A stretch of DNA of 64,000 nucleotides from a virus (Duplodnaviria; Caudoviricetes): the IMG/VR virus record IMGVR_UViG_3300027759_000043, one strand, 5' to 3'. Under the pieces are notes generated by a model. It was not told the DNA's origin. It worked only from the letters and a program-made list of their open reading frames with translations, and did no database searches. The translations under genes and the position numbers were made by a program. Every line of letters begins with the position of its first letter. Position 1 is the first letter of the stretch. Of this stretch, positions 23,866 through 57,956 are shown one piece after another.

Positions 23866-23945
23866 TATAGAAACATATTGCCGAGGAGCGACGTCTTTAC
23901 CATGGGCTCCGACCATAACGAGAGGTAGTGTGTTTCTATATGGTA
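23861..23945 (+). ncRNA. Structured ncRNA candidate A (19-bp closing stem)
   Basis: TACCATATAGAAACATATT/AGTGTGTTTCTATATGGTA with G-U pairs; inner GGAGC/GCTCC hairpin. Confidence 0.65.
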
Positions 23946-24068
23946 ACCATATAGAAGTATTCTTGGCATAAGTCAAAGCAGGAGAAGAAGCCTAGTATCT
24001 GCAGATGCGAAAGTTTCAGTGGTGCAAATCCCCTCCTAGGCCTGCCGTCGAGAGTGCTTCTATATGGT
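23946..24068 (+). ncRNA. Structured ncRNA candidate B (19-bp closing stem, tRNA-like T-arm)
   Basis: ACCATATAGAAGTATTCTT/GAGAGTGCTTCTATATGGT; GCAGG/CCTGC; GCCTAG/CTAGGC; GGTGCAAATCC loop. Confidence 0.7.
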
Positions 24069-24070
24069 AG

Positions 24071-31079: not shown

Positions 31080-31781
31080 CTATTTCACAGTGGCCAACCG
31101 CAAGGCCCTGAGGATGCAGATGTACATCCAACCTACATCAAACTCCCACCAGTTTCGACTGAGTCGGGCACTGGCCGGGTCCAGGTGATGATTGTTGTGC
31201 AATTCTTCACCGCCAACCACAATGCCCCAAGGCACAAGATTACGACTGAGATCTCGAGTTTCTCCGTTCCTGTATCCTGCCCAATGACCTAGACCATTGA
31301 TGACTCCGGCGGCCCAGAGTGGTATCCATATCATTTGAATGCCCCAGATCACAGGTCCCCACCAACCAAACATTACTGTATTGAACACAAGGACCAGGCC
31401 AATGCCAAGTCTACTGTGAGGAGTGTATATGTTGCGCTCCACCCAATCAGCAGGAGTGCCACGACCATATGTACTAACCATATCTTTATCTTTTGATGCC
31501 TCATGATATAATACTGCTCCTCGAAAAAATACTTGCACAATTCCATACACATGTGGTGAGTGTGGGTCGCCTGCTCGATCACTGTATCTGTGATGCTTGC
31601 GGTGTATGGCCACCCATTGTTTGGTGACCATGCCTGTTGTGAGCCACAGCCATGCTCGCATGAAATGTTCAATCATGGGATGAAACTCTACTGATTTGTG
31701 TGCTTGGCCACGATGTAGGTACAATGTCACACATGCTATAGTGATGTGTGTTACGATTAGGGTGTATAATAATTCAGTCAT
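31080..31781 (-). CDS. Fatty acid (acyl-CoA/acyl-lipid delta-9 type) desaturase
   Basis: His boxes HRGQAH, HRKHH, HNNHH; SPH; WEFDVGW. Confidence 0.9.
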   Translation of the reverse strand: MTELLYTLIVTHITIACVTLYLHRGQAHKSVEFHPMIEHFMRAWLWLTTGMVTKQWVAIHRKHHRYSDRAGDPHSPHVYGIVQVFFRGAVLYHEASKDKDMVSTYGRGTPADWVERNIYTPHSRLGIGLVLVFNTVMFGWWGPVIWGIQMIWIPLWAAGVINGLGHWAGYRNGETRDLSRNLVPWGIVVGGEELHNNHHLDPASARLSRNWWEFDVGWMYICILRALRLATVK

Positions 31782-31843: not shown

Positions 31844-32032
31844 ATGAGCCGGACATTGATCTGGGTTTTATCGTTTAGTGTGCTAGGGCCAGTGCCTGAA
31901 CACGGCGAACAAGCCAAGTTCAAAACTCAAGCCGAATGCGAGCAGGCCCGGGATCAAAAACGCGAAGAATTCCGATCCCAAAACAAACGGATCGTGGCGT
32001 CTTGTCATCTCAGCACAAAGGTTGACAAATAA
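31844..32032 (+). CDS. Small hypothetical (possibly secreted) protein
   Basis: Hydrophobic N-terminus, two Cys; TAAGTA upstream. Confidence 0.55.
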   Translation: MSRTLIWVLSFSVLGPVPEHGEQAKFKTQAECEQARDQKREEFRSQNKRIVASCHLSTKVDK

Positions 32033-32050
32033 TCAAAATAAATATATACT
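32022..32050 (+). promoter_or_regulatory. sigma70 promoter of tmRNA
   Basis: TTGACA(32022)-17-TATACT(32045). Confidence 0.8.
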
Positions 32051-32056
32051 GCTAGT

Positions 32057-32339
32057 TATTGCTGTATGAAGCAGATAAAAATGGATTCAAGACTCGGGGG
32101 CAGTGCCCGAATGGTCCACCAGAAGCATAATCGATTGGCTCATAGCCAGTTGAGACATAAGAAACATGATTGTGCTTCTGGTGGGCCATACACAGGATCG
32201 ATTGGGTCAGAAGTATTGAAGTGGACAGCACATCAGAGTAGATGTTAAAACTAAAAAAAAGTAAACGCAAACGACTCACAGTTCGCATTGGCCGCGTAAA
32301 GTAGCCTAGGGTAGGAAATACCTCGTAACAGAAACCACC
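32057..32339 (+). ncRNA. ssrA: Two-piece (circularly permuted) tmRNA, tag ANDSQFALAA
   Basis: Acceptor piece ends TCGGG-GGCAGTG-CCCGA-ATGGTCC-A-CCA (32121); 17-bp intervening hairpin; coding piece starts GGGCCAT (32183) giving G3-U70; tag ORF 32267-32299. Confidence 0.9.
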
Positions 32340-32367
32340 AAGCCCGCTTCGGCGGGCTTTTTCTTTT
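32340..32367 (+). terminator. Intrinsic terminator
   Basis: AAGCCCGC-TTCG-GCGGGCTT followed by T tract. Confidence 0.9.
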
Positions 32368-32380
32368 ATAAATATCCCTG

Positions 32381-33112
32381 ATGAAACCTGTCTTAATCCT
32401 GCAACACCAAACACCTGAGCGACCTGCTTATCTTGTGACATGGTTGACGCAACACAATATTGAATATGAAACACGCTGTGCTGGTGCAGGTCAAGAATTC
32501 CCCCAATCAATAGAACCTTATTCAGCCTTGGCTGTGATGGGTGGCGGTATGAGTGCTAATGATCCGTTATTGTCAAACCGTCAAGCCGAGATCTTAATCC
32601 TGCAGGCCATGCGCCGGGATCGTCCAGTAATAGGACATTGCTTGGGTGGGCAACTCATGAGTCGCGCACTGGGTGGTGTTATCAGCACATCACCACAGCC
32701 TGAAATAGGTTGGCAACCCATTGACTATGAACAGGTTCCCGAAGTAACAGAGTGGTTTGGTAACAATCCTACTCCACGTGTGATACAGTGGCACTATGAA
32801 ACTTTCAGCATACCTGAAGGTGCCACACGGCTAGCAGGTTCCACAGCCTGTCCAAATCAAGCCTGGGCCATGGGTCCACATTTGGCCATGCAGTTTCACA
32901 TAGAAATGGATGAGATCAAAGCACGGGAATGGGTCGGAGATGAAGATCCCAAATGGGCCGCGGCCCGAGCACAATACGTTACTGTGCAAGACAGTCAAGC
33001 AATTGTGGCGGGAATCCAACCACATTTGACACAGCATCAAGCCACTGCTGATCATGTTTACCGAACTTGGCTAAAAAACACAAATTGGAACGCTGCCTTG
33101 TCAACTAACTAG
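32381..33112 (+). CDS. Type 1 glutamine amidotransferase (GMP-synthase-like GATase)
   Basis: VMGGGMS, GHCLGGQL, QWHYETF, QFHIE. Confidence 0.85.
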   Translation: MKPVLILQHQTPERPAYLVTWLTQHNIEYETRCAGAGQEFPQSIEPYSALAVMGGGMSANDPLLSNRQAEILILQAMRRDRPVIGHCLGGQLMSRALGGVISTSPQPEIGWQPIDYEQVPEVTEWFGNNPTPRVIQWHYETFSIPEGATRLAGSTACPNQAWAMGPHLAMQFHIEMDEIKAREWVGDEDPKWAAARAQYVTVQDSQAIVAGIQPHLTQHQATADHVYRTWLKNTNWNAALSTN

Positions 33113-33608: not shown

Positions 33609-33848
33609 ATGTCAAGACTCAGCAGTGAATTAGCAGTGGAACGAATTGGCAATCGTTATGATTTGATCCTAGTGGCCAGTCGACGTGCCCGAGAACTCAG
33701 CCGCGGCGATCGGCCCCGGGTTGATCCAGGACAGAGCAATATCAGCACAGCCCTGCTGGAAATCGAGCAAGGTGCTGTAGATCGCAGTTATCTCTATAAA
33801 AATCAAGATTTAGCCGCCACAAGCCATCATAGGAAATATCAATCATGA
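33609..33848 (+). CDS. rpoZ: RNA polymerase omega subunit-like protein
   Basis: NRYDLILVASRRARELSRG..TALLEIEQG. Confidence 0.8.
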   Translation: MSRLSSELAVERIGNRYDLILVASRRARELSRGDRPRVDPGQSNISTALLEIEQGAVDRSYLYKNQDLAATSHHRKYQS

Positions 33849-35417: not shown

Positions 35418-36500
35418 ATGTCAGAATCCCGTACAGTCACAGCCGTGCAGGCTCGTAAAAGTTTGCTCCGTGCATTCAAGGTTCAACGTCCCTTGTTCTT
35501 GTGGGGGCCTCCCGGTATTGGCAAGAGTGAACTGGTAGAAGGTATCACTCGAGAACTTGGTGGCTTGATGATTGACTTGCGTTTGGGACAAATGGAGCCA
35601 ACAGACATCCGTGGTATTCCTTTTTACAACAAGGACATTGGCAAGATGGACTGGGCTGAGCCTGTGGAACTGCCTGATGAGGCCACTGCCAGCCAGTATC
35701 CTGTTGTGGTGTTGTTCCTAGACGAACTTAACTCAGCCGCACCCTCTGTCCAGAGTGCCGCTTATCAACTAATTTTGAATCGACGCATTGGCAAGTATAA
35801 GTTACCTGACAATGTTGTGATGGTTGCCGCAGGTAACCGTGAAAGCGACAAAGGTGTTACTTATAGAATGCCAACTCCCTTGGCAAATCGCTTTATCCAC
35901 CAAGAAATGAAGGTGGACTTTCCTTCCTGGCAAGAGTGGGCGGTGAACAACAACATCCACAAAGACGTGGTGGGTTACTTGAGTTTTGCCAAGCAAGACT
36001 TATATGACTTTGATGCCAAGAGTGCAAGCCGTGCATTTGCTACACCACGCTCTTGGACCTTTGTGAGCCAGTTACTGGACGAGGAAGAAGACAATGACAC
36101 TGTGACCAACTTGATTGCTGGTACAGTTGGCGAGGGTCTTGCTGTGAAGTTCATGGCACACCGCAAGGTTGCAAGCAAGATGCCTAACCCCAGCGACATC
36201 TTGAGTGGCAAGGTCAAGGACTTGAATGTAAAAGAAGTCAGTGCCATGTACAGCCTGGTGATCTCCATGTGCTATGAACTTAAAGGTGCAGTGGAGACCA
36301 AAGTAGAGGACAAGAAGTTCCATGAAATGAGTGACAACTTCTTTGGTTACATGATGAAGAACTTTGAGACCGAGTTGGTTGTGATGGGTGCTAGAATTGC
36401 ACTTACCACATACAACTTACCGTTCCAACCCAGCAAGTTGAAGAACTTTGATGAGTTCCATCAGCGTTATGGCAAGTACATCTTGCAGGCGTCAGCCTAA
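35418..36500 (+). CDS. MoxR-like AAA+ ATPase
   Basis: Walker A GPPGIGKS, Walker B FLDE, AAGNR, LANRF, TPRSW. Confidence 0.9.
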   Translation: MSESRTVTAVQARKSLLRAFKVQRPLFLWGPPGIGKSELVEGITRELGGLMIDLRLGQMEPTDIRGIPFYNKDIGKMDWAEPVELPDEATASQYPVVVLFLDELNSAAPSVQSAAYQLILNRRIGKYKLPDNVVMVAAGNRESDKGVTYRMPTPLANRFIHQEMKVDFPSWQEWAVNNNIHKDVVGYLSFAKQDLYDFDAKSASRAFATPRSWTFVSQLLDEEEDNDTVTNLIAGTVGEGLAVKFMAHRKVASKMPNPSDILSGKVKDLNVKEVSAMYSLVISMCYELKGAVETKVEDKKFHEMSDNFFGYMMKNFETELVVMGARIALTTYNLPFQPSKLKNFDEFHQRYGKYILQASA

Positions 36501-37359: not shown

Positions 37360-38628
37360 ATGACAACAACCACAGTATCAAAAGAAGACGCTAAAAAGTT
37401 CGCTAATCTTATTGGGCCAATGGATGCCAAACTAGATCGCGAAGTACGTGAAATTTTAATTACTGCTCGTGTGGGCCTGTTGTTAAAAGCGTCATTCTTT
37501 GGCAACCTTGCTACTCGTTTAAAACTAGTAAACGCAGATGAGTGGTGTGCTACTGCCGCAACAGACGGCCGCAATTTCTACTACAATAGTCGTTTCATTA
37601 AAATGTTGAGGCCCAAAGAAGTTGAGTTCCTGTTTGGACATGAGGTATTGCATTGTGTTTATGATCACTTTGGACGTAGAGGTGATCGCGATCCACAGTT
37701 GTGGAACATTGCAGACGACTTCTGTGTGAACGCAGACTTGAAGAAACACCATGTGGGCGAGTTTATTACGTCAGTGCCATGTTTGTATGATCACAAATAT
37801 GACGGCATGAGTGCAGAAGAAGTGTATGATATCTTGTATGAAAAAGCAGACAAGATTGATATCAGTAGCCTGTTGGACAAGATGATCGACGAGCACATGG
37901 ATGGTGACGACGAGCAAGATGGTGGTGGCAATGGTGACCAAGAAGGCAAAGGTCGTCCACGTTTGAGTAAAGAAGAACGTCAACAGATCAAGGATGAAAT
38001 CAAAGAAGCCATGTTGGCAGCCGCAAGTGCAAGTGATGCAGGCAACATTCCAGCAGGTGTCAAGCGTCTTATACAAGAGTTGACCGAGCCCAAGATGAAC
38101 TGGCGTGAACTTTTGCGTATGCAATTGGAGAGCACTATCAAATCGGACTTTACTTGGATGCGGGCTAGTCGCAAAGGTTGGCACATGGATGCTGTGATGC
38201 CGGGCATGAAGGTAGATCCCATGATTGATATTGCTATTGCAATTGACGCATCAGGTTCAATTGGTGAACGCATGCTCAAGGACTTTTTAGGTGAGATCCA
38301 AGGCATTATGGATTCGTTCCCTGCGTATCGTATTCATTTGTTTACATTTGACACTGATGCATACAATCCTGCACAATATGATTCAGATAACTTGGATGAC
38401 ATTTGTGACTATGAAGTTGCAGGTGGCGGCGGTACTGACTTTGATTGTATCTTCAAGTATTTGAAAGACAATGAGATTGAACCCAAGCGTCTTGTGGTGT
38501 TTACAGACGGCTACCCATTTGGTTCGTGGGGTGATGAGAACTATGCAGACACTGTTTGGATCTTGCACGGTACTACGACTATTGAACCACCCTGGGGCCA
38601 ATATGCCTACTACGACGAGGCCGAGTAA
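37360..38628 (+). CDS. Metallopeptidase-like + VWA-like domain protein (DUF2201-type)
   Basis: HEVLH, acidic linker, IDASGSI (MIDAS), GGGTDF, VFTDG. Confidence 0.85.
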   Translation: MTTTTVSKEDAKKFANLIGPMDAKLDREVREILITARVGLLLKASFFGNLATRLKLVNADEWCATAATDGRNFYYNSRFIKMLRPKEVEFLFGHEVLHCVYDHFGRRGDRDPQLWNIADDFCVNADLKKHHVGEFITSVPCLYDHKYDGMSAEEVYDILYEKADKIDISSLLDKMIDEHMDGDDEQDGGGNGDQEGKGRPRLSKEERQQIKDEIKEAMLAAASASDAGNIPAGVKRLIQELTEPKMNWRELLRMQLESTIKSDFTWMRASRKGWHMDAVMPGMKVDPMIDIAIAIDASGSIGERMLKDFLGEIQGIMDSFPAYRIHLFTFDTDAYNPAQYDSDNLDDICDYEVAGGGGTDFDCIFKYLKDNEIEPKRLVVFTDGYPFGSWGDENYADTVWILHGTTTIEPPWGQYAYYDEAE

Positions 38629-44030: not shown

Positions 44031-45839
44031 TCAATCAGTTGTTAGAGATCGTTTGATAAACGCATACGTGGCCAGCCAACTCCACTCATAACTCTTTTTA
44101 AGGGCCTCAAAATCCCCACCAACTTCTTCGTAATATTCAACAGCATCTTGAGCGCCTTTAGAACTCCACTGGCCTGCACCGTGGTCTACTTTGAGCCAGG
44201 CATTTAATCTGTATTCGTTTTCTACGTCAGGTAAACTGGCCCGCAATTTTAAACATTCTCTAAATGCTGTGCGCCAGGCAACCCAGTTTGAGGTGTAGTA
44301 TATGGCTTCGCCTGACAGTACAGGTACTACTTCGTGCGGTTGATCTAGTGTAAAGTCCAAGCCTGTGCCTGTATTCTCCAGCACTAATTTCTTGTTGTAA
44401 GCAATCATGCCTTGATGACCGTATTCAAGATCGTTGATGGTGTTTTTTGCGTGAAAGATATAGTGCTTGGCCTGTTGCATACGGTCAGGTTGCCAGGACC
44501 AATCAAAGTGTTGATTCACTCGCAATTTAGCAAACACAGCAAAGAACCAAGGCGTGGTGCTCATTCGGGCCGCGGCATGATAGGCCGCCACACGACCTGT
44601 TACTCCATCCGACCAGTGTATGCGATTGGGCACATGTCTAGCCACAGTTTCCAACCAACTGTATAATTCAATGGCATCTTTCTCACCGTTGCTGATAAAC
44701 ACAATGTCTAGGGACTGATCTTTTAATACACGAAGCGTTTTGTCTATGTAGGCGTAATCGTACAACTGTGTCTTTATCTCACCCACTGCGGCACGGGGCA
44801 CAATCACGCTGGCTGCCCCTGTACTTAACGGCACAATAGTTTTGGTTTCTTGACGCCATAGCGGAACTGTGGCCAAGTTTTCATGCACGTAATCTGTTGT
44901 GGTATACACAGCAAGTGGCCCATCAAACGGCAATGCTCGAACTGCTTCGGCTTGACTGTCATAGTTGTGTTCCACAACAGGCATAGGTCTACGTGGCACG
45001 CTGGTTGCAACAAAGTTACAGTCATACCATTCCAACAAAGCCGCACGTTCAGCACGGTGAGCAAATGTAGGCACATGCATGAAGAATGTATCACCAAACT
45101 TTTCTCCATCTGACGCAAATACATGTAGCATACTGGCTTGCCATTGCTCAGGATGCCAAGAGAAATCAAAGTTGCTGTAGTCACAAATGCTAGAACAAAT
45201 CCACACAAACTCGTGTTCATCACCTATGCTCTTGGCCAAGCGGATCAAGGTATCCTTGTAATTGTCAAAGTAACGCACACGTCGTGTGGTGTTAGCAATA
45301 TTACCGGCCGCACCATCCATATGATCAATTTCGTATATGGCTGTGGCCACTCTGCTGGTTGTCACACGTATTTGATCTACAAACTTTAGATCGACAGCAC
45401 CGGGCACATGATACTGTGGACCTCCTGTGCGTTGATGTTGTGTACCAAATTGATATATGTAGGGTGGCTCTGTAGAATCTGGGTGCCAACTCCAATCAAA
45501 ACTGTTAGTATCAATTCCTTTAGGAACTTTCCAACAATCTTTTTCTTTGTGTATGCGATTTACTATTGGTGCGGTATGATAATTAGTATCAGTATAGCCT
45601 TCTCTAGGCACAAGATATATGCCTGAATCTTTTTGCCATTGACTGGCCCAAGCATGACGTTGATGTGCTTGCCACGGCACCGGTTCCCAAAGAAAATCCC
45701 AGTCACTGAGATCCGCTAAGTATGTGACCCACCAAAAATACCTAGTACGGCATTGTTGTTGGGATTGTTCAATTGATTCTACCAACCGCTCGTGCGGAAA
45801 TAAACAAGGCTTAGTGCCAGTATAAAATATATCAAACAT
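44031..45839 (-). CDS. Large GT-like protein with Trp-rich internal repeats
   Basis: D(W/F)xW(H/Q/E)P repeats; C-terminal domain similar to 62352-63278. Confidence 0.55.
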   Translation of the reverse strand: MFDIFYTGTKPCLFPHERLVESIEQSQQQCRTRYFWWVTYLADLSDWDFLWEPVPWQAHQRHAWASQWQKDSGIYLVPREGYTDTNYHTAPIVNRIHKEKDCWKVPKGIDTNSFDWSWHPDSTEPPYIYQFGTQHQRTGGPQYHVPGAVDLKFVDQIRVTTSRVATAIYEIDHMDGAAGNIANTTRRVRYFDNYKDTLIRLAKSIGDEHEFVWICSSICDYSNFDFSWHPEQWQASMLHVFASDGEKFGDTFFMHVPTFAHRAERAALLEWYDCNFVATSVPRRPMPVVEHNYDSQAEAVRALPFDGPLAVYTTTDYVHENLATVPLWRQETKTIVPLSTGAASVIVPRAAVGEIKTQLYDYAYIDKTLRVLKDQSLDIVFISNGEKDAIELYSWLETVARHVPNRIHWSDGVTGRVAAYHAAARMSTTPWFFAVFAKLRVNQHFDWSWQPDRMQQAKHYIFHAKNTINDLEYGHQGMIAYNKKLVLENTGTGLDFTLDQPHEVVPVLSGEAIYYTSNWVAWRTAFRECLKLRASLPDVENEYRLNAWLKVDHGAGQWSSKGAQDAVEYYEEVGGDFEALKKSYEWSWLATYAFIKRSLTTD

Positions 45840-46992
45840 GATCAGAATAGACGAAATTTACGAAAATACATTTTTACCTTGGGTAAGAAAAAACTGCCCC
45901 GACACTGCAATATTTTACTGCGATCCATTTGGGCGTAGCGATCATGATAGTATCCTGTGCAGAGGCTTGCCAGACGGTGGAGAGAAAAATAGCATATTCT
46001 TTTTTGATCAAGAGCCTGTACAACTTAGTATTCATTTACCTACTTTTCAGTCTTTCAATTTGAGAAATGTACAAGGTATTAAAGAAAAAAAATTTGTAGT
46101 AACCAGCGAAACCAACAGTGACAATGTAGATTATATATGCAAAGCGTTTGAATTGCAACCTTTTTATTATTTCTTTCACGGCTGGGCCGCACTAGACTGG
46201 TATCGAGGGTACGATCGAACCTTTTTAATAACTCCCCCTGAACAACGGCATATTAAGAAAACTTTCTTCAGTGCCAATCGAATTATTGGAGGCGAACGTA
46301 GTCATCGGGTGGTTCAATTGTATCATTTTAAATTGTTTGATCTGATGCATAATCATATCAGTGCGCCACTAATATGTCCGGTGGAAAATCAACATATCGC
46401 TGATATTGCTGACTTCTATAAACATAGGTATCCTGAAAATTATCCAATCAGAGGGACAGATTATAGAGGCGGCATAATAGAAATAATTGCCCAAATGGAT
46501 TTGCCAAAATTATTTCCTGGGGAAGATACTCAACGTATGAGTAGTTGTTGGCTGGATCAATTTGAATTATGTGCAGAGAGTCTTATATATCATGTAAGTG
46601 AAACAATATTTTTTGGACGTAGACAACATCTAACTGAGAAAACTTTTAAACCCATAGCACTAGGTATGCCTTTTGTATTGAGTGCCCCTGCAGGTAGTCT
46701 AGCATATCTTCAACAATATGGTTTCAAAACGTTTGACACTATTTGGGATGAGCATTACGACACTGTAAAAGATGATAGTCTTCGAATTGGAATTCTAACT
46801 CGATTGTTAAAAAAAATAGATCAACAAAGTGAACAAGAAAAAAACGAAATGTTTAAAAAATGCATTCCAATTATAGAGCATAACTGGAATCACTTTTATC
46901 ATGGTGGATTTGAAAAAATCTTGTGGGCAGAATTGACTGCAATGCTAGACAATCTTAAGGTAGCCGTACAAGGTGATTTATCTAGCCATTGA
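45838..46992 (+). CDS. GT10-like glycosyltransferase family protein
   Basis: VSETIF..LTEKTFKPI..PF..GFKTF..WDEHYD. Confidence 0.6.
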   Translation: MIRIDEIYENTFLPWVRKNCPDTAIFYCDPFGRSDHDSILCRGLPDGGEKNSIFFFDQEPVQLSIHLPTFQSFNLRNVQGIKEKKFVVTSETNSDNVDYICKAFELQPFYYFFHGWAALDWYRGYDRTFLITPPEQRHIKKTFFSANRIIGGERSHRVVQLYHFKLFDLMHNHISAPLICPVENQHIADIADFYKHRYPENYPIRGTDYRGGIIEIIAQMDLPKLFPGEDTQRMSSCWLDQFELCAESLIYHVSETIFFGRRQHLTEKTFKPIALGMPFVLSAPAGSLAYLQQYGFKTFDTIWDEHYDTVKDDSLRIGILTRLLKKIDQQSEQEKNEMFKKCIPIIEHNWNHFYHGGFEKILWAELTAMLDNLKVAVQGDLSSH

Positions 46993-48160
46993 TCATAGAG
47001 ATCCTGCGACAGGTAGGCCCATGCCCAATGGTATTCCATTGAGCCAACATCATTTGATCGAACTCATGGATGGTTATAGACTAGACTATCCTAGAATCAT
47101 ATATTACCTGCATCAGTGTCAGATTCCTATGAAAATAGTTTCAACAGTTGATGCACCTGCAGGTGCTTGGTACCCTGTTGTACTTGGATGGTTTGATTTT
47201 TCAGCAGACTATCTTGCCATGATTGATACTGCCGCATACAAGTATATCAAACAAAAACAAATGAAGTTGATATTTACGTATCATGAAGGTGATAATCCTG
47301 CTTGTATACGAGAACGTATCAATCATTTGTGTGCTGACCATGCAATAGATCCTGAACAGGTATGGTTGATAAGTGGTAACACATCGGCTGATCTTGTGCC
47401 CGGTTGTGTGTACTGGCCTGAGTTAGAATTTATGTATTGGCGCACCGTGGATCGATCAGCAGGTGCCCGGTATCATCTGCGCCCAAGAAGTCGAGCGTTT
47501 ACTGGCCTATGTAGAATAGACAAACTGTGGCGCAAAGTATTCATGAGCGAACTATGGGCCGATGATTTACATAAAAATGGATATTTTAGTTACAATCAAC
47601 ATCTATTAGGCGGTGAGGATGACTATTTTGGTTGTGCGTTGAACAACAGTTATTTGTCTAACAAACAATCGCAAGTTGACCAATTTATCGCCGCAGGACC
47701 ATTTCGTGTGGACCAACTAAACACAGACTCTCATAACAACTATGCGGCCAATATGACCAACCTCTATGAGGACAGTTATTTCAATATTGTGTTGGAAACC
47801 ATGATTGATGTGGACGATTCAGGTGGGGAGTTTCTGACAGAAAAAACATTCAAGCCTATATTCAACAATCAATTTTTTATCACGGTTAGCGGCGCCAATC
47901 ATATGGCACATCTACGTGAACTAGGGTATCAATCTTTTGGTCTTGTGATAGATGAACACTATGACACAATAGAAAACAATCAAGAGCGATTTGAAGCGGT
48001 GCTGGCGCTTACTAAAGATTTGTGTGCTAGACCATTGACAGAGTTGCACTCGATCTATCAGCAGTTACAACCGGAAATCACACACAACCATCAAGTATTT
48101 GTAGCAGGTATGGGTCACCGACTACAAGCAGTGGTTGATCGCATCAACTGCAAACCTTAA
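46973..48160 (+). CDS. GT10-like glycosyltransferase family protein
   Basis: VLETM..LTEKTFKPI..LGYQSF..IDEHYD. Confidence 0.6.
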   Translation: MIYLAIDHRDPATGRPMPNGIPLSQHHLIELMDGYRLDYPRIIYYLHQCQIPMKIVSTVDAPAGAWYPVVLGWFDFSADYLAMIDTAAYKYIKQKQMKLIFTYHEGDNPACIRERINHLCADHAIDPEQVWLISGNTSADLVPGCVYWPELEFMYWRTVDRSAGARYHLRPRSRAFTGLCRIDKLWRKVFMSELWADDLHKNGYFSYNQHLLGGEDDYFGCALNNSYLSNKQSQVDQFIAAGPFRVDQLNTDSHNNYAANMTNLYEDSYFNIVLETMIDVDDSGGEFLTEKTFKPIFNNQFFITVSGANHMAHLRELGYQSFGLVIDEHYDTIENNQERFEAVLALTKDLCARPLTELHSIYQQLQPEITHNHQVFVAGMGHRLQAVVDRINCKP

Positions 48161-49622
48161 CACTATACAACTGCTCAAAACGATCTGCATCTGCACGATC
48201 ATTCACCATGGGTTCGCCACGTATGTTAAGACTGGTGTTCAACAACATAGGGCATCCTGTTAACACGTACCATTTCTCTAGTAGTTCTCTTATGCCCGAA
48301 CCGTCCCGCGCCACAGTCTGTACTCGGCTGGTACCATCAACATGACATATAGCAGGAGTAAGGTCAGGCTGGCGACACCTAGCGACTGACTGCATATAAG
48401 GACTATGATGCCAACCCACTGGCATATCAAAATAGTCATGAACCACCTCAGCCAATATAACCGGGGCAAAAGGCCTAAACTGTTGTCTACGTTTGATTTC
48501 ATTCACTTTCTCCTTGATCTCGCTGCCTCTAGGGTCTGCAAGGAGGCTACGGTTTCCCAGTGCGCGGGGGCCGAACTCGGCTCTTCCTGATGCCACTCCG
48601 ACAATTTTGTCACTAACAAGCCGATCCAACAACTGGTTAACAGGATAAACACCTGGAATGCAATGGCCGAGATAACTGTCCCGCCAGTTAATTCTACTCC
48701 CAAGAGCCAAAGCGGCAGCACCGAGACTGCTACCAGCATCACCGGGGCAAGGCATAATCCAGATTTTGTCAAAGTAATCTCCTAACATGCGGTTGGCTGT
48801 GCAATTTAGTGCCACCCCACCCATATATACCAGATTTGAACTAAAACCTGTGTTTCTGGCACGAATCATTACTTGTCGAATAAGATCCTCTGCTACCAGT
48901 TGCCCAGAGGCCGCAATGTTTTCATTGCTGGCGCCCTTTAAGAAATCCTCACTCATTCCTGTGTGAAAGTTTTGCTTTAGTTCAATATCACGATCGTTTG
49001 CAATCACATGTGAACGCATGTCATGATACCACGTGTTACGACCCCAGGCAGCCATGCCCATAGTGATGTATTCTTCGTCTAGTGGGTGTAGGCCAATACG
49101 CTGGGTGACTGCACTGTAAAATAACCCAATGCTGTGTGGATAAACCTGTCTCCACAATCTCTTGTACCGGGCCTGGCCTTTTGAATCATATTCTGCACCC
49201 CATATACTAATAGTATCCCATTCACCAATTGCATCTATTACCACTACTGTGGCACGTTCAAAAGGTGACGTTTGAAAACCCCCTGCCGCATGCGATAAAT
49301 GATGATTATAACTATGCACCTTTGTGGGTTCAATTTGTCTACCCAGTTGTTTCTTTAATATCTGCTGGGTGGTGAGTTTGTCCCATTCAATACCTTGACC
49401 TGCGTACCATTGTCGTGCTTGTTTTGCCCAAGGGCGTTCATAGTAAGCAACCACTTCAGGACCATATGCAAGAACTTCGTCTAGCAGACCTTGACAAAAG
49501 TCTGCATCATTTTTCTTTTTGCTATAACGCTCTGAATGGCCGGCAAACAATATCTCCCCGTCAAGGCTTATGACTGTTGCAGCCGCATCATGAAAGCCAG
49601 CAGAGATGCCCAGGATGTTCAT
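48144..49622 (-). CDS. Carbamoyltransferase (NodU/CmcH/TobZ family)
   Basis: GISAGFHDAA, HHLSHA, DAIGE, GGVALNC, GPRALGNRS, RPFAP, LNTSLN. Confidence 0.92.
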   Translation of the reverse strand: MNILGISAGFHDAAATVISLDGEILFAGHSERYSKKKNDADFCQGLLDEVLAYGPEVVAYYERPWAKQARQWYAGQGIEWDKLTTQQILKKQLGRQIEPTKVHSYNHHLSHAAGGFQTSPFERATVVVIDAIGEWDTISIWGAEYDSKGQARYKRLWRQVYPHSIGLFYSAVTQRIGLHPLDEEYITMGMAAWGRNTWYHDMRSHVIANDRDIELKQNFHTGMSEDFLKGASNENIAASGQLVAEDLIRQVMIRARNTGFSSNLVYMGGVALNCTANRMLGDYFDKIWIMPCPGDAGSSLGAAALALGSRINWRDSYLGHCIPGVYPVNQLLDRLVSDKIVGVASGRAEFGPRALGNRSLLADPRGSEIKEKVNEIKRRQQFRPFAPVILAEVVHDYFDMPVGWHHSPYMQSVARCRQPDLTPAICHVDGTSRVQTVARDGSGIRELLEKWYVLTGCPMLLNTSLNIRGEPMVNDRADADRFEQLYSVKVCS

Positions 49623-49720
49623 TTGTAGATAAATGGATCTCGCTTGCGTAGTTCTTTTAATTTTTTACGATAACGAATTTCTAATGTAATTCTTGCCCAA
49701 AGTCTTTTAAACCAATTCAT
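49619..49720 (-). CDS. 33-aa basic peptide MNWFKRLWARITLEIRYRKKLKELRKRDPFIYK
   Basis: Exactly fills the gap with ATGA overlaps on both sides. Confidence 0.7.
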   Translation of the reverse strand: MNWFKRLWARITLEIRYRKKLKELRKRDPFIYK

Positions 49721-50754
49721 TTTATATTCCTAATTTGTTGTTCTGCGTAGTCTGGATCACTCCAGTGATACTCATATGTAGCCTGTGCTGTACTGGTACG
49801 TATTTTATACACGTTTTGATGTTGACTCAATTGCGAGTATATGTTGTCCCAGTCTTCTGTACCAAACGACCTCGAGAGATCAACTTGCCCGATGCAAGGG
49901 TGGCCGATTGTAAGACTTGCATCATCTGGGTCAAATCCATTCCGTTCAAGCCATAGTCGAAATTCTGCCAACTGCTTGATTTGCCAAGGGAATGAGCCGG
50001 GATCACGGGCCCATTCAATATCAAAGTCACCAGCCGCTTGAGTCTGGACACGTAGTCCTGTAGTAACCAATTCTGAAATTCTCGAATCTCTACCTTCATC
50101 TTGAAATACCTCCCAGTGATGCTTGCCCACTGCTTTATTTACACCCACATACACACCGCCCAATTTTCTGTTGATTGTGTCTATACCAAACAATTCTAAA
50201 TCTTCAGCATCTAATTCATAGCGCGGAGCGTTTAACCAACACATGAGTTGTGATGGTCTGCGCCATTCAGGTGCAGTTCGGGCTTTGCGTATGCTAAGTA
50301 CCAGGCTTTCAAACTCATGACATAGCAAATTTAACTGGCGTATGTGCCAACGTGTGTAGTCATCGGCTGAATCATAATAGGAACTCATGGCTCCGGCTGT
50401 TCCTTGTAAGTCTTCAAAGTAACGATGCAGTTGATTCATGTGTGCATGATCCACCCCTCCATTGTCAGCAACGGTGTTGGCCGGGGAGAAGAAGTCTTGT
50501 ATGGTATAGCCTAGGTTGGCTGAGTTGATGGCGTGTATACTGCGATTGATTTGAGTACACAGGTATTCAGGATTGCGAGCACTTTCAGCCCAACCCAACC
50601 AGCAGTAATTCTTTTCCAAATGTAGATTATTTTGAATAATATTATTCAACGCCGCAAGCCATTTACGGCTGAGACTGTTGTCCTCGACATCTATGTGTAC
50701 CGTTAAAATTTCATTGTTATGACCGCGCAGGTCCATTTCGATATGATCAAGCAA
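49717..50754 (-). CDS. Hypothetical protein in radical SAM cluster
   Basis: 345-aa ORF; NQLHRYFE and LNLLCHEFE His-containing helices. Confidence 0.65.
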   Translation of the reverse strand: MLDHIEMDLRGHNNEILTVHIDVEDNSLSRKWLAALNNIIQNNLHLEKNYCWLGWAESARNPEYLCTQINRSIHAINSANLGYTIQDFFSPANTVADNGGVDHAHMNQLHRYFEDLQGTAGAMSSYYDSADDYTRWHIRQLNLLCHEFESLVLSIRKARTAPEWRRPSQLMCWLNAPRYELDAEDLELFGIDTINRKLGGVYVGVNKAVGKHHWEVFQDEGRDSRISELVTTGLRVQTQAAGDFDIEWARDPGSFPWQIKQLAEFRLWLERNGFDPDDASLTIGHPCIGQVDLSRSFGTEDWDNIYSQLSQHQNVYKIRTSTAQATYEYHWSDPDYAEQQIRNIK

Positions 50755-52036
50755 TTTTCATCCACCATTCTAGTACTTCTGGTCGCGAGCCCAGGATATC
50801 TGTCATTGTTACTGACTGTGTTCTTATCTGTTCTAATTGTAAAACACGAACCTTGCCCTTGACAAGAGCCGCTTGGTATTGATCCGGCCACTGTTCTGCA
50901 AATGTGGGCCGGGTCTTTAATTGTAACAGTACATCACGCATGGCACCTGCGGAGCGGCCTGCTAGTTCGTCAACCCATGGATCCAGCACGGCTCTAGGCA
51001 ATGCTAGTGGACTCATAATGATATCTGGCGAGAAACTAAAGATAACTTTGGCCAGTAGTTCTACTCCAAACTGTCGCGCCAATTGTTGTATCGCATCAAC
51101 TTCGAGCATTCCGGGCAACGTGAGTGTAAAATCAATGCGCATTTGTCTGGGGGTTGTTGCGTAACGTAGTCCGTGTTCAAAATTACGCTTGAACTGTTCA
51201 TAATCCAATCCTGTACGAATATATTCCCCAATCTCGTTAGTTCCATCCAATGAAGCACATATTTGCCAGTCCCGGACATGGCTGAGAATATCGCCAAAAA
51301 GATCCATGCCGCGATAATTAATTCTGCTAAGGTTTGTATTATATCTAGCATACAGTCGAGGTCCATCTCCTAATTCAATTATTCGTCGCATGTAACGCCA
51401 ATGCTGTTCATACATTAGGGGTTCACCGCCAACCCAGTATATTTCTTCTACTGCATGTCGTTCCACGGCGGCAGCAAATTCGGCTTCAACCTGATTCTCC
51501 TGAAAGTGTGCGATCTGTCCACGTATATCTGTTCGCATCCAATTGTTCTTTGGATTTGATAAGTCAACCATGTTGTTCTGTTTTTGTTCACTTTCCCAGG
51601 CCGAGGATAGCATGTCGCCACAGGTTCTGCATTTGAAGTTACACAAGTTGCTGAACCTATAATCCCACGACACAGGAGCCATAGTTGTAGAACCATCCTC
51701 ACTAGTGGATGCAAATATCTCGGGTAATTTATGCTGAAATAAATGGTCGAAGTATGTTCGATATACATTGGTGTTTAAAAGTCGATCGTTGCAGACTTCG
51801 CATTCGGGCAGGGTTTCTCCAGCCATCATTCTGCGGCGCACTGACTTCATATGCTCTGAATTCCAGTGACCCTCTAGTGTAATGGGAATATACTTTCCTG
51901 TGCCCGAACTCGTATCTATATACTGCTCAAAGTTCTGCGCTGGTTCTCTTGACGCACAACACATCCTGCGTTCGGTCTGCGGTGAAAGATATGTATGCAC
52001 CCAGGGCGCAAGACACATGGTATCAGGTTTCTGCAT
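50747..52036 (-). CDS. Radical SAM protein with N-terminal twitch/SPASM-like domain
   Basis: CLAPW..MCC; CNFKCRTC; GGEPL. Confidence 0.85.
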   Translation of the reverse strand: MQKPDTMCLAPWVHTYLSPQTERRMCCASREPAQNFEQYIDTSSGTGKYIPITLEGHWNSEHMKSVRRRMMAGETLPECEVCNDRLLNTNVYRTYFDHLFQHKLPEIFASTSEDGSTTMAPVSWDYRFSNLCNFKCRTCGDMLSSAWESEQKQNNMVDLSNPKNNWMRTDIRGQIAHFQENQVEAEFAAAVERHAVEEIYWVGGEPLMYEQHWRYMRRIIELGDGPRLYARYNTNLSRINYRGMDLFGDILSHVRDWQICASLDGTNEIGEYIRTGLDYEQFKRNFEHGLRYATTPRQMRIDFTLTLPGMLEVDAIQQLARQFGVELLAKVIFSFSPDIIMSPLALPRAVLDPWVDELAGRSAGAMRDVLLQLKTRPTFAEQWPDQYQAALVKGKVRVLQLEQIRTQSVTMTDILGSRPEVLEWWMKIA

Positions 52037-52955
52037 ATGATATCAAAGGTTCAACAATTTCTTTAAATATACGTTGTTCTACTAATTCTTTATTAAAAAA
52101 TAAATTATGATTGTGTTTGAGTTTGCCAATGGTAATAGAATCATATGGAATTTTATAAAAGTTATCTATGTTTGCTATAACAGTATTTAATCTTGCATCA
52201 AAATCTTCTATGTTGTCATATGATTCGTCAAATATATTATCATATGTTTCAAATCCCAATTCTTTTAATCTTTTTAATGTATGATGTTGTCCAATAATTA
52301 AAAATGGATGATAATAAGCGCATGCCTTGAATGTTTTGTCAGTGGGCCACCAGCAGTCCCCAATTTGGCTAGTTTCCACTACGGTGCTAAAATAAGTGTC
52401 ATCGTACCACTCAGAGTTGAAAAATCGTTGATAATTTGGATCTATTGTTGTTGTATCATTGGGTAGTTTTTTGTCTTGATAACTCCATATGAAATTTTCA
52501 AGCCTGGCCCCTAGTAAATCAATTATTGCTTTTCGTTCTTTGCTTGGTCGTCTGACCGACATAAATGATAGTTTTTTATATGTTTTCTTAGGTACATAAT
52601 TATGATATCCTAAATGTTGCCACCATAAACTTTCGTTATACCAACACCAATTTTTATTATTCAATTCATAATAGTTGTTGCTGTATTCCGATCTGGGGAG
52701 TTCCCAAAGATTGTCAATTATCACAATGTGACCTGAATTTTTTAACTGGCGACTATATTTGTCATCAGCGTTCATCCACCAGACTGCAAAAAGGGTTGAT
52801 TTGTCATATGTTTTTTCACTATCAAACCATTCAATATCAAAATATTCTTGCCAAAAACTTTCTAGATAGAAACTAGTAAAACTAGTGAATTCGTCTGGTC
52901 TCAAAATTAACTTGACTTTAGACATAGTTAAGTAATTTTGCCAGTTCAGGGGCAA
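52023..52955 (-). CDS. GT10-like glycosyltransferase family protein (AT-rich)
   Basis: VVETS..TDKTFKA..PF..GFETY..FDESYD. Confidence 0.55.
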   Translation of the reverse strand: MPLNWQNYLTMSKVKLILRPDEFTSFTSFYLESFWQEYFDIEWFDSEKTYDKSTLFAVWWMNADDKYSRQLKNSGHIVIIDNLWELPRSEYSNNYYELNNKNWCWYNESLWWQHLGYHNYVPKKTYKKLSFMSVRRPSKERKAIIDLLGARLENFIWSYQDKKLPNDTTTIDPNYQRFFNSEWYDDTYFSTVVETSQIGDCWWPTDKTFKACAYYHPFLIIGQHHTLKRLKELGFETYDNIFDESYDNIEDFDARLNTVIANIDNFYKIPYDSITIGKLKHNHNLFFNKELVEQRIFKEIVEPLISYAET

Positions 52956-54123
52956 CAGTGGCTAAATTTTGTTCACGGCGGCTGTCTAATTTTTGTATTT
53001 GCTTTCGAATTTCAACACCATCAGTTGATTGGCCACGTATCATGAAATCAATGATGCCCGCAAAGTCTTCCTTGTACTTAGACGGACTTAATGCAGTATT
53101 TAAATGATTAGCGACGGCTTGTTTTGCAGAATCAGGCAATGCGCCAATGGAAAAATACGGTGCATCATGCATGATATTCCAGTATACAAAATCAAAGCCT
53201 TGTACACTGATCCAGTGTGCCAGTTGGTCGATATAACGAACATTGAATATATTCACGGTGGAACAACATTGCAGTTGAATATTAGAATGCTGCCGACGTA
53301 TTTGACGGAACAGTTCAAGATTTCTTTGAACATCAACCCATTTAGCACCAGTGCGCTGATATTCAAATCGTTCACACAAGTCATCGATACTAAATGCAAT
53401 CTCCACTGTTTTAAAATGCTTCCAAATTTCAATAGCATCCGCTGGATACTGAGTGCCATTGGTATTGTAGTGTATTTCGACTTGGTGTGCTATGCCACGG
53501 TCCACTATGCCTTGTAACATAGTAAAATGTTCTTCAATCATAAAGGGCTCGCCGCCTGTAAATTCAATGTAACGAATGTCGTTAAGTACTGAATCAATCT
53601 GTGTCCAAAATTGATCATTTTCTCTGGGCCAACGTCCGGCCTTTAACATTTGATAAGCAAAACTTGTCTTGCTGTGCGCTTCTATTGAAGTTGCGATTTC
53701 TTCTACAGCAAAACTACTGCTAGACCAAGACCCGCATATACGGCATTTGAGATTGCAGATGTTGCCCAATTTAAGGTCAAGGAACATGAGTGGCTTGGCG
53801 TCCCGAGTCCATTCCGTACTAATGCCCATGTGCTTGAGTCTGTCTAGTGTGTGCATACGTTTACTAGTACGCCCAGCGTCTTCCTCATTCCAACACTTGC
53901 GGCAAGTGGCGGGTTGTTTTCCTGCTAAGAATGCTTGTCGCAATTGGTACATGTATTCGCTATTTTGAATATCTCGAAAATTAGCAGACTTCAAGTTAAA
54001 CTTGACACTATTACTGTCTACAATTTCATCATCGGCCAAGCAACAGGGACGCACTGTACCTATAGGGCTGGCTTCTAGGCTTACCCAGGGCAATACACAA
54101 AATTTATCGTGTGGTAAATTCAT
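52918..54123 (-). CDS. Radical SAM protein with N-terminal twitch/SPASM-like domain
   Basis: CVLPW..PCC; CNLKCRIC; TGGEP. Confidence 0.85.
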   Translation of the reverse strand: MNLPHDKFCVLPWVSLEASPIGTVRPCCLADDEIVDSNSVKFNLKSANFRDIQNSEYMYQLRQAFLAGKQPATCRKCWNEEDAGRTSKRMHTLDRLKHMGISTEWTRDAKPLMFLDLKLGNICNLKCRICGSWSSSSFAVEEIATSIEAHSKTSFAYQMLKAGRWPRENDQFWTQIDSVLNDIRYIEFTGGEPFMIEEHFTMLQGIVDRGIAHQVEIHYNTNGTQYPADAIEIWKHFKTVEIAFSIDDLCERFEYQRTGAKWVDVQRNLELFRQIRRQHSNIQLQCCSTVNIFNVRYIDQLAHWISVQGFDFVYWNIMHDAPYFSIGALPDSAKQAVANHLNTALSPSKYKEDFAGIIDFMIRGQSTDGVEIRKQIQKLDSRREQNLATVAPELAKLLNYV

Positions 54124-55382
54124 TTCAAAACCTTGAGTTCAGGAAGCACGTCCAAGACGTTTTCATTTCTAATGTCATCCAGTTCGTGCGTTTTACGCCA
54201 GAATGTGTCGATCAACTGTGTATTGTCTGTTGCGTTCATGAATTGAATGGCTGATTGAAATCCTTGCGTGGCACGACCCAATGGATCTCTATCACTCATC
54301 CAGGACAAATGCTTACGGTATTTTTCTTCTAGTCGTTGTTTGTACTCAACCGTAGCAATATCTATTCTATAGTATGCTGGATCTTGCAAAATGTTTACAT
54401 TTAAATCTTGTGGCTGAATTAGTCCAGCGGCACACCATTCTCTGTGAAAGTCTGGCAAATGCCAAGCATTTAATATGCTGAGTGTGGGCGAAATGTAAAA
54501 GTCTACATTGGGACACGTTGCAATCATTCTGTGACGATTCTGCACAACGTCCGACCATCGGGTACCTTTGCGTATGTATTCGGCAGGATGGCCCATGCCG
54601 TCCAATGACGCACCCACTGCCACTGAGTCAAACTGTCGCCAGTATTCAAATACTGAACGGCCTTTTAGATCTATGTGCGTGAAATTTGTATTGTAGATTA
54701 ATCGTACATCAAAGCGTTTTCTCTTTACCAGTTCTTCTAAGATGTTGTAGTGTTCTTCCATCAGCAATGGCTCGCCACCTGCGAAGTAGATTTGTTCTAC
54801 ATAGTCCAAATGCGGTTCTAATTGTGTCCACATGTCTGTTTCTGTGCGCCCTGCATAGTTAAGAACTGCGTTGCGATCTTTCCATTCAGGGCCTGCTAAT
54901 TTCACTTGATCCTGGTACCATTGGCTTGAAAAGATATGCCCACATGAGCGACATTTTAAATTGCAAAGATTGCTGAAACGAATATCCCAATAGGTCATTT
55001 CAAACGGATTAGCATCTAATTTTTTAACATGATGCCCGTGATGTTTATTTGCTGATCGGCGTCCTGAAAAGAATCCCGATTGTTCTTGTTCATAACAACG
55101 TACACAAGCGGCATGTGGCGTTTCACTCAGCATATCAGCACGTAACTGTTGCATAGGCTTGTCCTGCCATATTTCTTCAAGCGTGTTTGTTCTACAGTTG
55201 CCCACTACTCCTGGCTTCATTTCAGCATGACAGCAAGGATATGCTTCACCTGTGGGATATGCATGCAAATGAATCCAAGGATAGATACAGAATGTCTTGG
55301 AGTCTTCTAGCAAGAAACGTTCACGCTCGGTGAGTTCTGTGGCACGTACTAGATCAGTAGAGTTATACTTGTATTGCGTCAT
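54120..55382 (-). CDS. Radical SAM protein with N-terminal twitch/SPASM-like domain
   Basis: CIYPW..PCC; CNLKCRSC; AGGEP. Confidence 0.85.
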   Translation of the reverse strand: MTQYKYNSTDLVRATELTERERFLLEDSKTFCIYPWIHLHAYPTGEAYPCCHAEMKPGVVGNCRTNTLEEIWQDKPMQQLRADMLSETPHAACVRCYEQEQSGFFSGRRSANKHHGHHVKKLDANPFEMTYWDIRFSNLCNLKCRSCGHIFSSQWYQDQVKLAGPEWKDRNAVLNYAGRTETDMWTQLEPHLDYVEQIYFAGGEPLLMEEHYNILEELVKRKRFDVRLIYNTNFTHIDLKGRSVFEYWRQFDSVAVGASLDGMGHPAEYIRKGTRWSDVVQNRHRMIATCPNVDFYISPTLSILNAWHLPDFHREWCAAGLIQPQDLNVNILQDPAYYRIDIATVEYKQRLEEKYRKHLSWMSDRDPLGRATQGFQSAIQFMNATDNTQLIDTFWRKTHELDDIRNENVLDVLPELKVLK

Positions 55383-56700: not shown

Positions 56701-57956
56701 AAATTATTTTGGATAAAATTAACAAAACGGTCAGGAAATTCGCTAAAGATTCTAGGTCCTTCTGCCGCCAAGTGTTGTTGATTATACTTAGTTACTGCTC
56801 GACTTGCAACCAGAAATTCCGCCAGATTGCTCTCACATAAGTCTTGCACCACTTGGGCTATTCGATCCAATCGATCTTGATTGTTGTCTATTGAGTCAAA
56901 TGATTCATCAATCAGGTGATCAAATGTTTGGAATCCTGCGCGACGCAAGTCGCGATAAAAACCGCAATTGGCCACTGCCACAAAAGGATGACCCATGGCA
57001 ATGGGTTTGTAAATTTTTTCACTACGCAGGCTGTAAGGGTAGTCAAACACAGTTTCTGACACCAAACTGAAATAGGTATCTATGTAGGGTTCAGCACGAA
57101 TATACACGTCGCCCCATTTGTTATCAAACAATTCGTGTTTGACAAATGCATGTTGATATTGGTCTTTTTGTCCTGCATGAAATTGTTCTACTTCATATTC
57201 GGCGGGTAACAGTTGTATCTTGTTGGGTCTCTCAAACAGATCAGTCGAATAGGTGTGATGGTATACTGGGGTAGTGTCCAAGTTGGTCCAAAGTGCATGT
57301 GCCAACAGGCCAGCATCACGCATGAGTTCTATCATGTATTTTCTGTGTGGTCTCGTGCGTCCATTCAAGAAAAGAAACTTATAGGGTTTGTGTAATTTGT
57401 TATAGATTTCACCTACACGAGCACCTTGTTTGGCATTGCTTTCATAACAGGTTGCTCTGTAAGCATAATGATCGTACACCATGCAGTTGAGTTCAGGCTC
57501 CATATCTCCGCACCCAACTAATAATAATTTCTTGTTTCGAATTAGATCTATCAATCCTAGTCGTTGGCATTGTAATTTAAGAGTAATCGATCCTTCTGAT
57601 GGATTGGCCAGTACGGGTAAGCAAATCTCTGCAAGTTGTTTCACACGATCTGCATAACGATTTACAGTTTGTCTGGCCAGCACAACAATGTCATTAGGCT
57701 GGGGTTCGTATTGCTCAAAATCCCAAAATGTATCATCTACGAGATGTTGTATTTCTGTGTGTATCTCGCAGGAAGTATCGCATACAAGTCTGTGGTTACC
57801 TAGCATGATATCTGCACTCGTCCCACCACGACCGCATTTCAGGGAATGTGTTTGAGAAGTCTGTGCCACGTCGACGATCATGTTCCGCAAAGAATCTGTA
57901 AAAGTCTGCACGTGCCTTGGAGTGATCTTGTGCTTGCGCACTGCGCATCCAAGCAA
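56697..57956 (-). CDS. GT10-like glycosyltransferase family protein
   Basis: VSETVF..SEKIYKPI..PF..GFQTF..IDESFD; true start probably near 57806. Confidence 0.55.
   Translation of the reverse strand: MLGCAVRKHKITPRHVQTFTDSLRNMIVDVAQTSQTHSLKCGRGGTSADIMLGNHRLVCDTSCEIHTEIQHLVDDTFWDFEQYEPQPNDIVVLARQTVNRYADRVKQLAEICLPVLANPSEGSITLKLQCQRLGLIDLIRNKKLLLVGCGDMEPELNCMVYDHYAYRATCYESNAKQGARVGEIYNKLHKPYKFLFLNGRTRPHRKYMIELMRDAGLLAHALWTNLDTTPVYHHTYSTDLFERPNKIQLLPAEYEVEQFHAGQKDQYQHAFVKHELFDNKWGDVYIRAEPYIDTYFSLVSETVFDYPYSLRSEKIYKPIAMGHPFVAVANCGFYRDLRRAGFQTFDHLIDESFDSIDNNQDRLDRIAQVVQDLCESNLAEFLVASRAVTKYNQQHLAAEGPRIFSEFPDRFVNFIQNNL

Follow-up and report, generated by a model that had tools for sequence, protein, structure and literature searches.

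Two-piece tmRNA genes in phages

Transfer-messenger RNA (tmRNA) genes of the permuted, two-piece type are already documented in phages. Buchholz et al. (2022) reported a tmRNA gene (ssrA) of the two-piece form from the marine T4-like phage Melnitz and from related virome contigs and made the case for an alphaproteobacterial origin; of 133 unique phage tmRNAs, 53 are two-piece, and 50 of these come from aquatic phages (PMC9004378). The tmRNA database, with a survey by ARAGORN and by BLAST against the database itself, lists 79 phage tmRNA sequences, and tRNA-processing enzymes are known to split the transcripts of permuted tmRNA genes into two pieces held by base pairing (PMC11915505). Bxz1-group mycobacteriophages and Bacillus phage G (one-piece) and mycobacteriophage DS6A (tRNA-like domain only) also carry ssrA without a phage SmpB, but these have the standard gene order or no message and belong to unrelated phage groups with other hosts (PMC4131195). 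We analyzed a 64,000-nucleotide (nt) stretch of DNA from a virus of the Caudoviricetes (IMG/VR record IMGVR_UViG_3300027759_000043; here the window), in which positions 32022 to 32367 of the + strand form a complete circularly permuted two-piece tmRNA (ssrA) gene, recognized well beyond chance. Given the documented precedents, the gene itself is unsurprising, and the statement in an initial annotation of the window that phage tmRNAs are usually one-piece was overstated.

The closest described relative is the ssrA gene of Melnitz, a Methylophilales phage (MZ577097.1, 45984-46436), and of related pelagimyophages, which is a two-piece gene of an aquatic T4-like myophage without SmpB; the window gene is likewise two-piece and comes from an aquatic, probably T4-like phage, for which no SmpB was found in the window or in the relatives searched. 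The T loops of both genes are of the alphaproteobacterial (alpha) type (GGCAGUA in Melnitz and GGCAGUG in the window), the segments between the two pieces (spacers) have the same closing stem, an ACCA start, and a GAU end before G1, and the 3' hairpin and tail are similar. In contrast, the best-scoring model is alpha_tmRNA for Melnitz (106.7 bits) and beta_tmRNA for the window, and the Melnitz tag is alpha-like, with 14 residues beginning with ANDN, whereas the window tag has 10 residues. Melnitz also carries a glutamine riboswitch at the 3' end (52.8 bits), while an Rfam scan of the window gave no riboswitch match; riboswitch fusion is not a defining feature of the Melnitz-type ssrA group (PMC9004378). 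The window gene is thus a diverged freshwater representative of the tmRNA lineage found in Melnitz and other aquatic T4-like phages.

We consider it probable, at roughly 80%, that the gene encodes a working phage tmRNA, in the permuted two-piece form, for ribosome rescue; its RNA would then be processed, charged, and used for tagging, presumably to the benefit of the phage.

Identification and structure of the gene

The beta_tmRNA model (RF01850) was the best full-length model in the Rfam scan, matching 32009-32362 with 101.1 bits (cutoff, 84 bits; E value = 1.4e-29), and the tmRNA_permuted model (RF04321) matched 32060-32299 over its full model length with 95.2 bits (cutoff, 47 bits; E value = 3.5e-17). 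The full-length alpha_tmRNA score of the window is known only to be below 101.1 bits because only the best model of the clan was reported. The locus shows the features of RF04321, namely, a tRNA-Ala-like domain, an acceptor piece upstream of the coding piece, helices between the pieces, and a tag frame of the LAA type. ARAGORN run at a lowered threshold (-ps) called a permuted tmRNA with the same parts and the tag ANDSQFALAA. The initial annotation had claimed that the phage carries a complete tmRNA gene of the two-piece type, and every element that it listed is present in its place (Table 1).

The predicted fold of the gene is far more stable than that of shuffled sequence (z = -5.2). The terminator aligns with the terminal hairpin of the beta_tmRNA model in the Rfam alignment. 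Ahead of the resume codon, U at position -5 and A at position -4 are maintained, as is also the case before the resume codon of Escherichia coli tmRNA. At the pseudoknot 1 (PK1) position, no consistent pairing partner was found among family members, and this element was treated as a plain hairpin. Two open reading frames (ORFs) that overlap the gene, at 32052-32510 (-) and 32066-32248 (+), had no Pfam match.

Table 1. Elements of the permuted tmRNA gene, in window coordinates
Feature	Coordinates	Strand	Details and basis
Promoter, sigma-70-type	32022..32050	+	-35 TTGACA 32022-32027, 17-nt spacing, -10 TATACT 32045-32050; 11/12 consensus positions
Acceptor (3') piece	~32058..32121	+	Rfam alignments; 5' end inferred from promoter
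P2b and P2a strands of acceptor piece	32060-32065 (P2b); 32084-32090 (P2a)	+	Rfam alignment, covariation
T arm	32094-32110	+	Stem 32094-32098/32106-32110; loop GGCAGUG 32099-32105
Acceptor 3' strand, discriminator A, encoded CCA	32111-32117; 32118; 32119-32121	+	Rfam, direct reading
Intervening segment (spacer)	32122..32182	+	61 nt; minimum-free-energy (MFE) fold
Coding (5') piece	32183..32335	+	Rfam, ARAGORN -ps, covariation
Acceptor 5' strand GGGCCAU	32183-32189	+	Pairs with 32111-32117; G3.U70
D-loop-like AGGAUCGA	32193-32200	+	In coding piece
P2a and P2b strands of coding piece	32202-32208 (P2a); 32225-32230 (P2b)	+	Partners 32084-32090 and 32060-32065
PK1-position hairpin	32231-32244	+	In coding piece
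Tag frame	32267..32299	+	Resume codon GCA 32267-32269; ten codons, ANDSQFALAA; stop UAA 32297-32299
3' hairpin, then conserved tail	32309-32323; 32324-32333	+	In coding piece
Intrinsic terminator	32340..32367	+	8-bp G+C-rich stem with UUCG loop (32340-32359), then U run

Conservation in a family of freshwater phages

A pattern built on the T arm was found in at least 120 IMG/VR contigs, and a coding-piece pattern that is independent of the T loop added 18, for at least 138 contigs; among the readable T loops of the 18 added contigs, GGCAGUG occurred at 13 loci and GGCGGUA at 1. Several family contigs are 100 to 374 kb long, and the DNA is present in freshwater metagenomes of many studies. The gene lies at the same site, after a tRNA cluster, in three relatives (G004, a complete genome of 352,754 bp; G005, 320 kb and 92% complete; and a 125-kb contig), and the genes around it in these three have 65 to 81% nucleotide identity to the window. 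A promoter matching at least 10 of the 12 consensus positions is present at the equivalent position in about 36 of the 84 distinct family upstream regions; elsewhere the gene follows tRNA genes. One family contig (L013) also carries a GOLLD RNA (RF02032, 202 bits) at 2633-3098 (+), among tRNA genes and 1.5 kb downstream of its tmRNA gene, and no GOLLD match was found in the window.

The helices of the gene are under evident pairing constraint across this family. The 123 parsed genes fell into 65 distinct versions when the tRNA-like domain and P2 were taken together. The seven pairs of the acceptor stem are all formed in each of them (65/65), with G3.U70 invariant and pairs 6 and 7 changing in a compensatory way. 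Compensatory changes also occur at T stem pairs 1 to 3 and at four positions of P2a. P2b is paired in about 45 to 50 of the 65 versions, the rest having other leader types that the alignment did not place. The helices between the two pieces that had been noted in the initial annotation are therefore not only present but covary.

The tag frame is conserved as a coding sequence. The ten-codon tags of the family comprise 43 distinct nucleotide versions, 12 of which encode exactly ANDSQFALAA, and residues 1 to 3 and 10 are constant across all 43 although their codons vary. Differences from the window tag fall mostly at third codon positions (175, versus 67 at first and 60 at second positions), and all three stop codons are in use. 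The third-position bias and the encoding of the same peptide by 12 versions argue against a decoy or a dead remnant, two alternatives considered below. Four related contigs (L044, L047, L073, and L037) have tags of 27 to 29 residues ending in LAV or VLA, much longer than the ten-residue tag with an ALAA end that is usual in the family.

Neither the whole gene nor the coding piece gave any match by blastn against 50,697 phage records, the window gene being too diverged; the T arm alone gave weak matches in phages of Rhodobacterales. A loosened T-arm pattern searched in one genome per species (185,579 species) had 27 matches. Eight of these are genuine alpha tmRNAs of Micavibrio-like bacteria (two were scored, at 207 to 220 bits with alpha_tmRNA), one is a phage-like contig of 1.8 kb that had been assigned to a Bacteroidetes metagenome-assembled genome, and the others are chance matches inside protein genes. 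The family is very large in freshwater giant phages, with none matched in cultured-phage records by blastn. ARAGORN called 24 of 120 family loci at its default threshold and 83 of 120 at the lowered threshold; that most loci are missed at default may explain why the family has been little noticed, and surveys based on ARAGORN may undercount it.

The spacer between the two pieces

The acceptor stem and its extension into the spacer form, in the MFE fold, a single 22-bp helix (32111-32132/32168-32189; 7 bp plus 15 bp), in which ACCA pairs with UGGU; beyond this helix lies a distal hairpin of 8 bp (32133-32140/32144-32151). A 17-bp intervening hairpin had been described in the initial annotation; there is a hairpin at that place, but it consists of 15 bp that extend the 7-bp acceptor stem without a break, plus the 8-bp distal hairpin.

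Family spacers comprise 83 distinct versions of 25 to 382 nt (median, 87 nt). Nearly all have an A-rich run right after ACCA, GAU right before G1, a covarying closing stem of 10 to 15 bp, and a variable interior. The base preceding G1 is able to pair with the discriminator A in 81 of the 83 versions, and it is U, the base favored there by bacterial RNase P, in every version listed. The spacer is presumably removed during maturation. In the window it is a short version with no room for a gene. The 96-nt spacer of one relative (L058) contains stretches resembling tRNA T arms and others reach 382 nt, so that different kinds of cargo seem to be accommodated in the spacer.

Two hairpin cassettes behind a tRNA-Glu gene of the window (23866-24070, +) have the same CCA-to-UGG closure and, by eye, a similar stem core. 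From these shared features, the tmRNA spacer looks like one more of the tRNA-end processing hairpins of this phage. A motif scan of the window for the spacer stem gave counts at chance level.

Proposed ribosome rescue and alternative roles

In the mechanism that we propose, host RNA polymerase would produce a single precursor from the sigma-70-type promoter to the terminator, and the acceptor stem of this precursor would run on into the long closing helix of the spacer. Enzymes of tRNA processing would remove the spacer, with RNase P cutting before G32183 and an endonuclease opening the other end, for which RNase III is a candidate because the 22-bp helix is perfect; trimming by exonucleases would then proceed as far as the encoded CCA, which ends at 32121. 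The products would be an acceptor piece of about 64 nt and a coding piece of about 150 nt, held together by the acceptor stem, P2a, and P2b. Host alanyl-tRNA synthetase would charge the RNA, guided by the identity elements G3.U70 and A73, and host SmpB and EF-Tu would deliver it to ribosomes stuck on broken mRNAs. Translation would restart at GCA 32267, append ANDSQFALAA, and stop at UAA, releasing the ribosome. The tagged peptide would pass to host ClpXP-type proteases through its LAA end, as the C-terminal LAA of proteobacterial tags does. The likely benefit is that ribosome rescue could be sustained during shutoff of host transcription and breakdown of mRNA by the phage.

The tag ANDSQFALAA is three positions away from the E. 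coli tag and reads as a canonical proteobacterial degron. Altered protease routing, which had been suggested in the initial annotation, is therefore unsupported: the tag still begins with AND and ends in ALAA and is two positions away from the ANDERFALAA tag of sampled Burkholderiales.

No SmpB (Pfam PF01668) was found in the complete relative G004, in G005, or in three partial relatives, in searches whose controls worked, and tblastn with four bacterial SmpB proteins gave no match in the window, as the initial annotation had observed. Since no SmpB was found in the window or in the relatives searched, the phage most likely depends on that of the host. An alpha-style tRNA end must then work with the SmpB of each host, which makes the family a natural experiment on the matching of tmRNA and SmpB.

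RNA-library contigs of the coding piece exist in lake metatranscriptomes. Contigs of three lake-water metatranscriptome runs from three studies match 32197-32335, some identically over 63 to 70 nt, and lend modest support to expression of the family in nature. In two runs, the matching sequence passes straight into adapter letters at 32332 and 32335, which hints weakly at an RNA 3' end before the terminator hairpin. In these runs, RNA contigs were lacking over the tRNA-like parts and the spacer as well as over the terminator and the flanking genes. We attach no weight to these gaps; stretches that are structured, modified, or shared within the family are poorly assembled, and neither ends nor levels can be read from contigs.

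Several points weigh against a working rescue RNA. Its processing, alanylation, and tagging are deduced from sequence, and at default settings ARAGORN gives no call for the window gene. The window and its relatives score far under the bacterial alpha (123 to 313 bits) and betaproteobacterial (beta; 169 to 331 bits) tmRNAs, and the PK1 position of the window gene holds only a 4-bp hairpin, leaving a pseudoknot unsupported. The phage would have to rely on the SmpB of its host, of whatever type, and, because the SmpB searches covered the window and the relatives, an smpB gene may lie elsewhere in this phage genome. The RNA-library contigs are assembled across close relatives, and such libraries may include DNA.

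The phage RNA could instead serve host take-over rather than housekeeping rescue, a role that Buchholz et al. proposed for Melnitz (PMC9004378). The promoter of the early, host-polymerase type and a tag that is a full degron under coding selection would suit this role, but tmRNA acts on stalled ribosomes only, and a preference for host proteins would call for some additional mechanism, of which none is visible. We consider take-over unlikely, although sequence alone gives no means of separating it from plain rescue, and both could hold at once. A still less probable role is that of a decoy, which would inhibit host trans-translation by sequestering host SmpB or by competition with the host tmRNA. 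Such a role has been discussed for the RNA of mycobacteriophage DS6A, which consists of the tRNA-like domain only (PMC4131195), and it would fit a phage in which no SmpB of its own was found in the window or the relatives searched. A decoy needs no message, yet here the context of the resume codon, the frame of ten codons, and the stop codon are conserved with a codon-position pattern of the translated type. Phages often integrate into ssrA and carry its fragments (PMC9004378, PMC4131195), but an inert remnant, whether a piece of host ssrA from imprecise excision or an attachment-site copy, has next to no probability for a gene with both pieces complete, its own promoter and terminator, helices that covary over at least 65 versions, and a syntenic position in large lytic-type phage genomes, and whose T-arm pattern with this architecture occurs, Micavibrio-like alpha tmRNAs aside, in only one 1.8-kb phage-like contig among 185,579 species genomes. 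Ribosome rescue by a phage-encoded tmRNA remains the reading that we prefer.

Alpha-like and beta-like parts

The lineage signatures used here were taken from bacterial genomes sampled in this analysis. Of 151 Alphaproteobacteria, 146 passed alpha_tmRNA (a tally that includes one unpublished genome, G048, on which none of the other results depends); full-length alpha genes scored 123 to 313 bits, and the only lower passes were a second match in one genome and one partial match. Only 3 of 151 Burkholderiales passed beta_tmRNA, and a family-level search added seven, for a total of 10 beta genes with 169 to 331 bits. The T loop is GGCRGUR in 37/37 alpha genes and 0/10 beta genes, which bears out the assignment of this loop as an alpha signature in the initial annotation. 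All 10 beta genes have the canonical loop UUCRAYU, which the GGCAGUG of the window does not fit. The last A of CCA is not encoded in 8 of the 10 beta genes, whereas it is encoded in the alpha and phage genes. Alpha tags begin with ANDN (33/33) and mostly have 12 to 13 residues; Burkholderiales tags have ten residues and are of the ANDERFALAA type.

Compared with alphaproteobacterial tmRNA (RF01849, e.g., that of Caulobacter), the window gene has the same permuted order, GGCRGUR T loop, AGGAUCGA D-loop region, encoded CCA, and 3' hairpin with a CGYAACAGAA tail but differs in the P2 strands and the PK1 region. With betaproteobacterial tmRNA (RF01850), it aligns in the resume context, the 10-residue tag of the AND..FALAA type, and the terminal hairpin; in contrast to the window gene, beta genes have the canonical UUCRAYU T loop, a CCA whose last A is mostly unencoded, and far higher scores.

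This division was also apparent when the gene was split. The best model for the tRNA-like half (32040-32200) was alpha_tmRNA (37.0 bits; E value = 1e-9), with no beta match listed, and the best model for the message half (32205-32365) was beta_tmRNA (61.3 bits; E value = 9e-19). The description of the gene as alphaproteobacterial-type in the initial annotation consequently holds for the tRNA-like half but not for the whole gene. The check by alpha, beta, and cyanobacterial models that it proposed came out in the same way, with beta passing over the full length and alpha best on the tRNA-like half, whereas cyano_tmRNA gave no tmRNA match on the relatives. Parts of the gene were also aligned locally with 37 alpha and 9 beta genes, against a background in which shuffled segments reach about 11 to 16. 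The best alpha scores exceeded the best beta scores for the T arm (24 versus 12), the 5' acceptor and D-loop region (16 versus 10), and the 3' hairpin and tail (18 versus 10); for the resume and tag region the order was reversed (alpha, 16 to 17; beta, 22 to 24).

All 20 family members that were scored passed tmRNA_permuted (75 to 133 bits). The best model was beta in five of them (84 to 129 bits) and alpha in thirteen (52 to 90 bits), and two were under both cutoffs; the alpha_tmRNA scores of 52 to 90 bits exceed the cutoff of 50 bits but are far below those of real alpha genes (123 to 313 bits). G004 scored almost equally with the two models (alpha, 82.1 bits; beta, 84.0 bits). With such intermediate and low scores, the family is a phage lineage between both bacterial models and far below each.

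The beta-like part of the window gene, mostly the resume and tag stretch, could come partly from selection for the same peptide. In three relatives (L016, L025, and L030), the entire module from PK1 to the tag is beta-like, and the inclusion of the noncoding PK1 region points to a real exchange. For L025 and L016, this module scored 36 to 42 with beta two-piece tmRNAs, 27 to 28 with the one-piece tmRNAs of Burkholderiales, and no more than 24 with alpha tmRNAs. It is therefore conceivable, if doubtful on present evidence, that the freshwater phage tmRNA is a recombinant, with a tRNA-like domain and 3' hairpin derived from alpha genes and a PK1-to-tag module from the beta two-piece lineage.

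If so, phages would shuttle and re-assort tmRNA modules between bacterial classes, and the exchanged module would adapt the degradation tag to whichever host is being infected. The bacterial two-piece tmRNA lineages are regarded as independent in origin; under recombination, segments may have been exchanged between them and phage genes, or phages may even have been the source of their permuted gene. The patchwork of alpha-like and beta-like parts, which seems to be the one aspect of the family not yet described, opens the origin and exchange of permuted tmRNA to testing.

Neighboring genes

Downstream of the tmRNA gene, a 79-residue ORF (33609-33848, +) encodes an RNA polymerase omega/Rpb6 homologue (PF01192; E value = 3.8e-12), whose best Burkholderiales and Alphaproteobacteria matches are 30 to 46% identical. 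Compared with 61 genomes of each group, its best scores were close together (37.6 bits for Burkholderiales and 34.3 bits for Alphaproteobacteria). Between the tRNA cluster and the tmRNA gene, on the opposite strand, lies a fatty-acid desaturase homologue (31080-31781, -; PF00487; E value = 2e-12). A MoxR-like AAA ATPase (phrog_1297) is encoded near a DUF2201 metallopeptidase/VWA protein (phrog_1314) at 35418-36500 and 37360-38628 (+), a region with 70 to 81% nucleotide identity in related giant phages. At 44031-57956 (mostly -) and 5424-7373 (+), genes for several radical-SAM proteins, of which one has a B12-binding domain, are accompanied by a gene for a NodU/CmcH-type carbamoyltransferase, in what looks like a modification or biosynthesis cluster.

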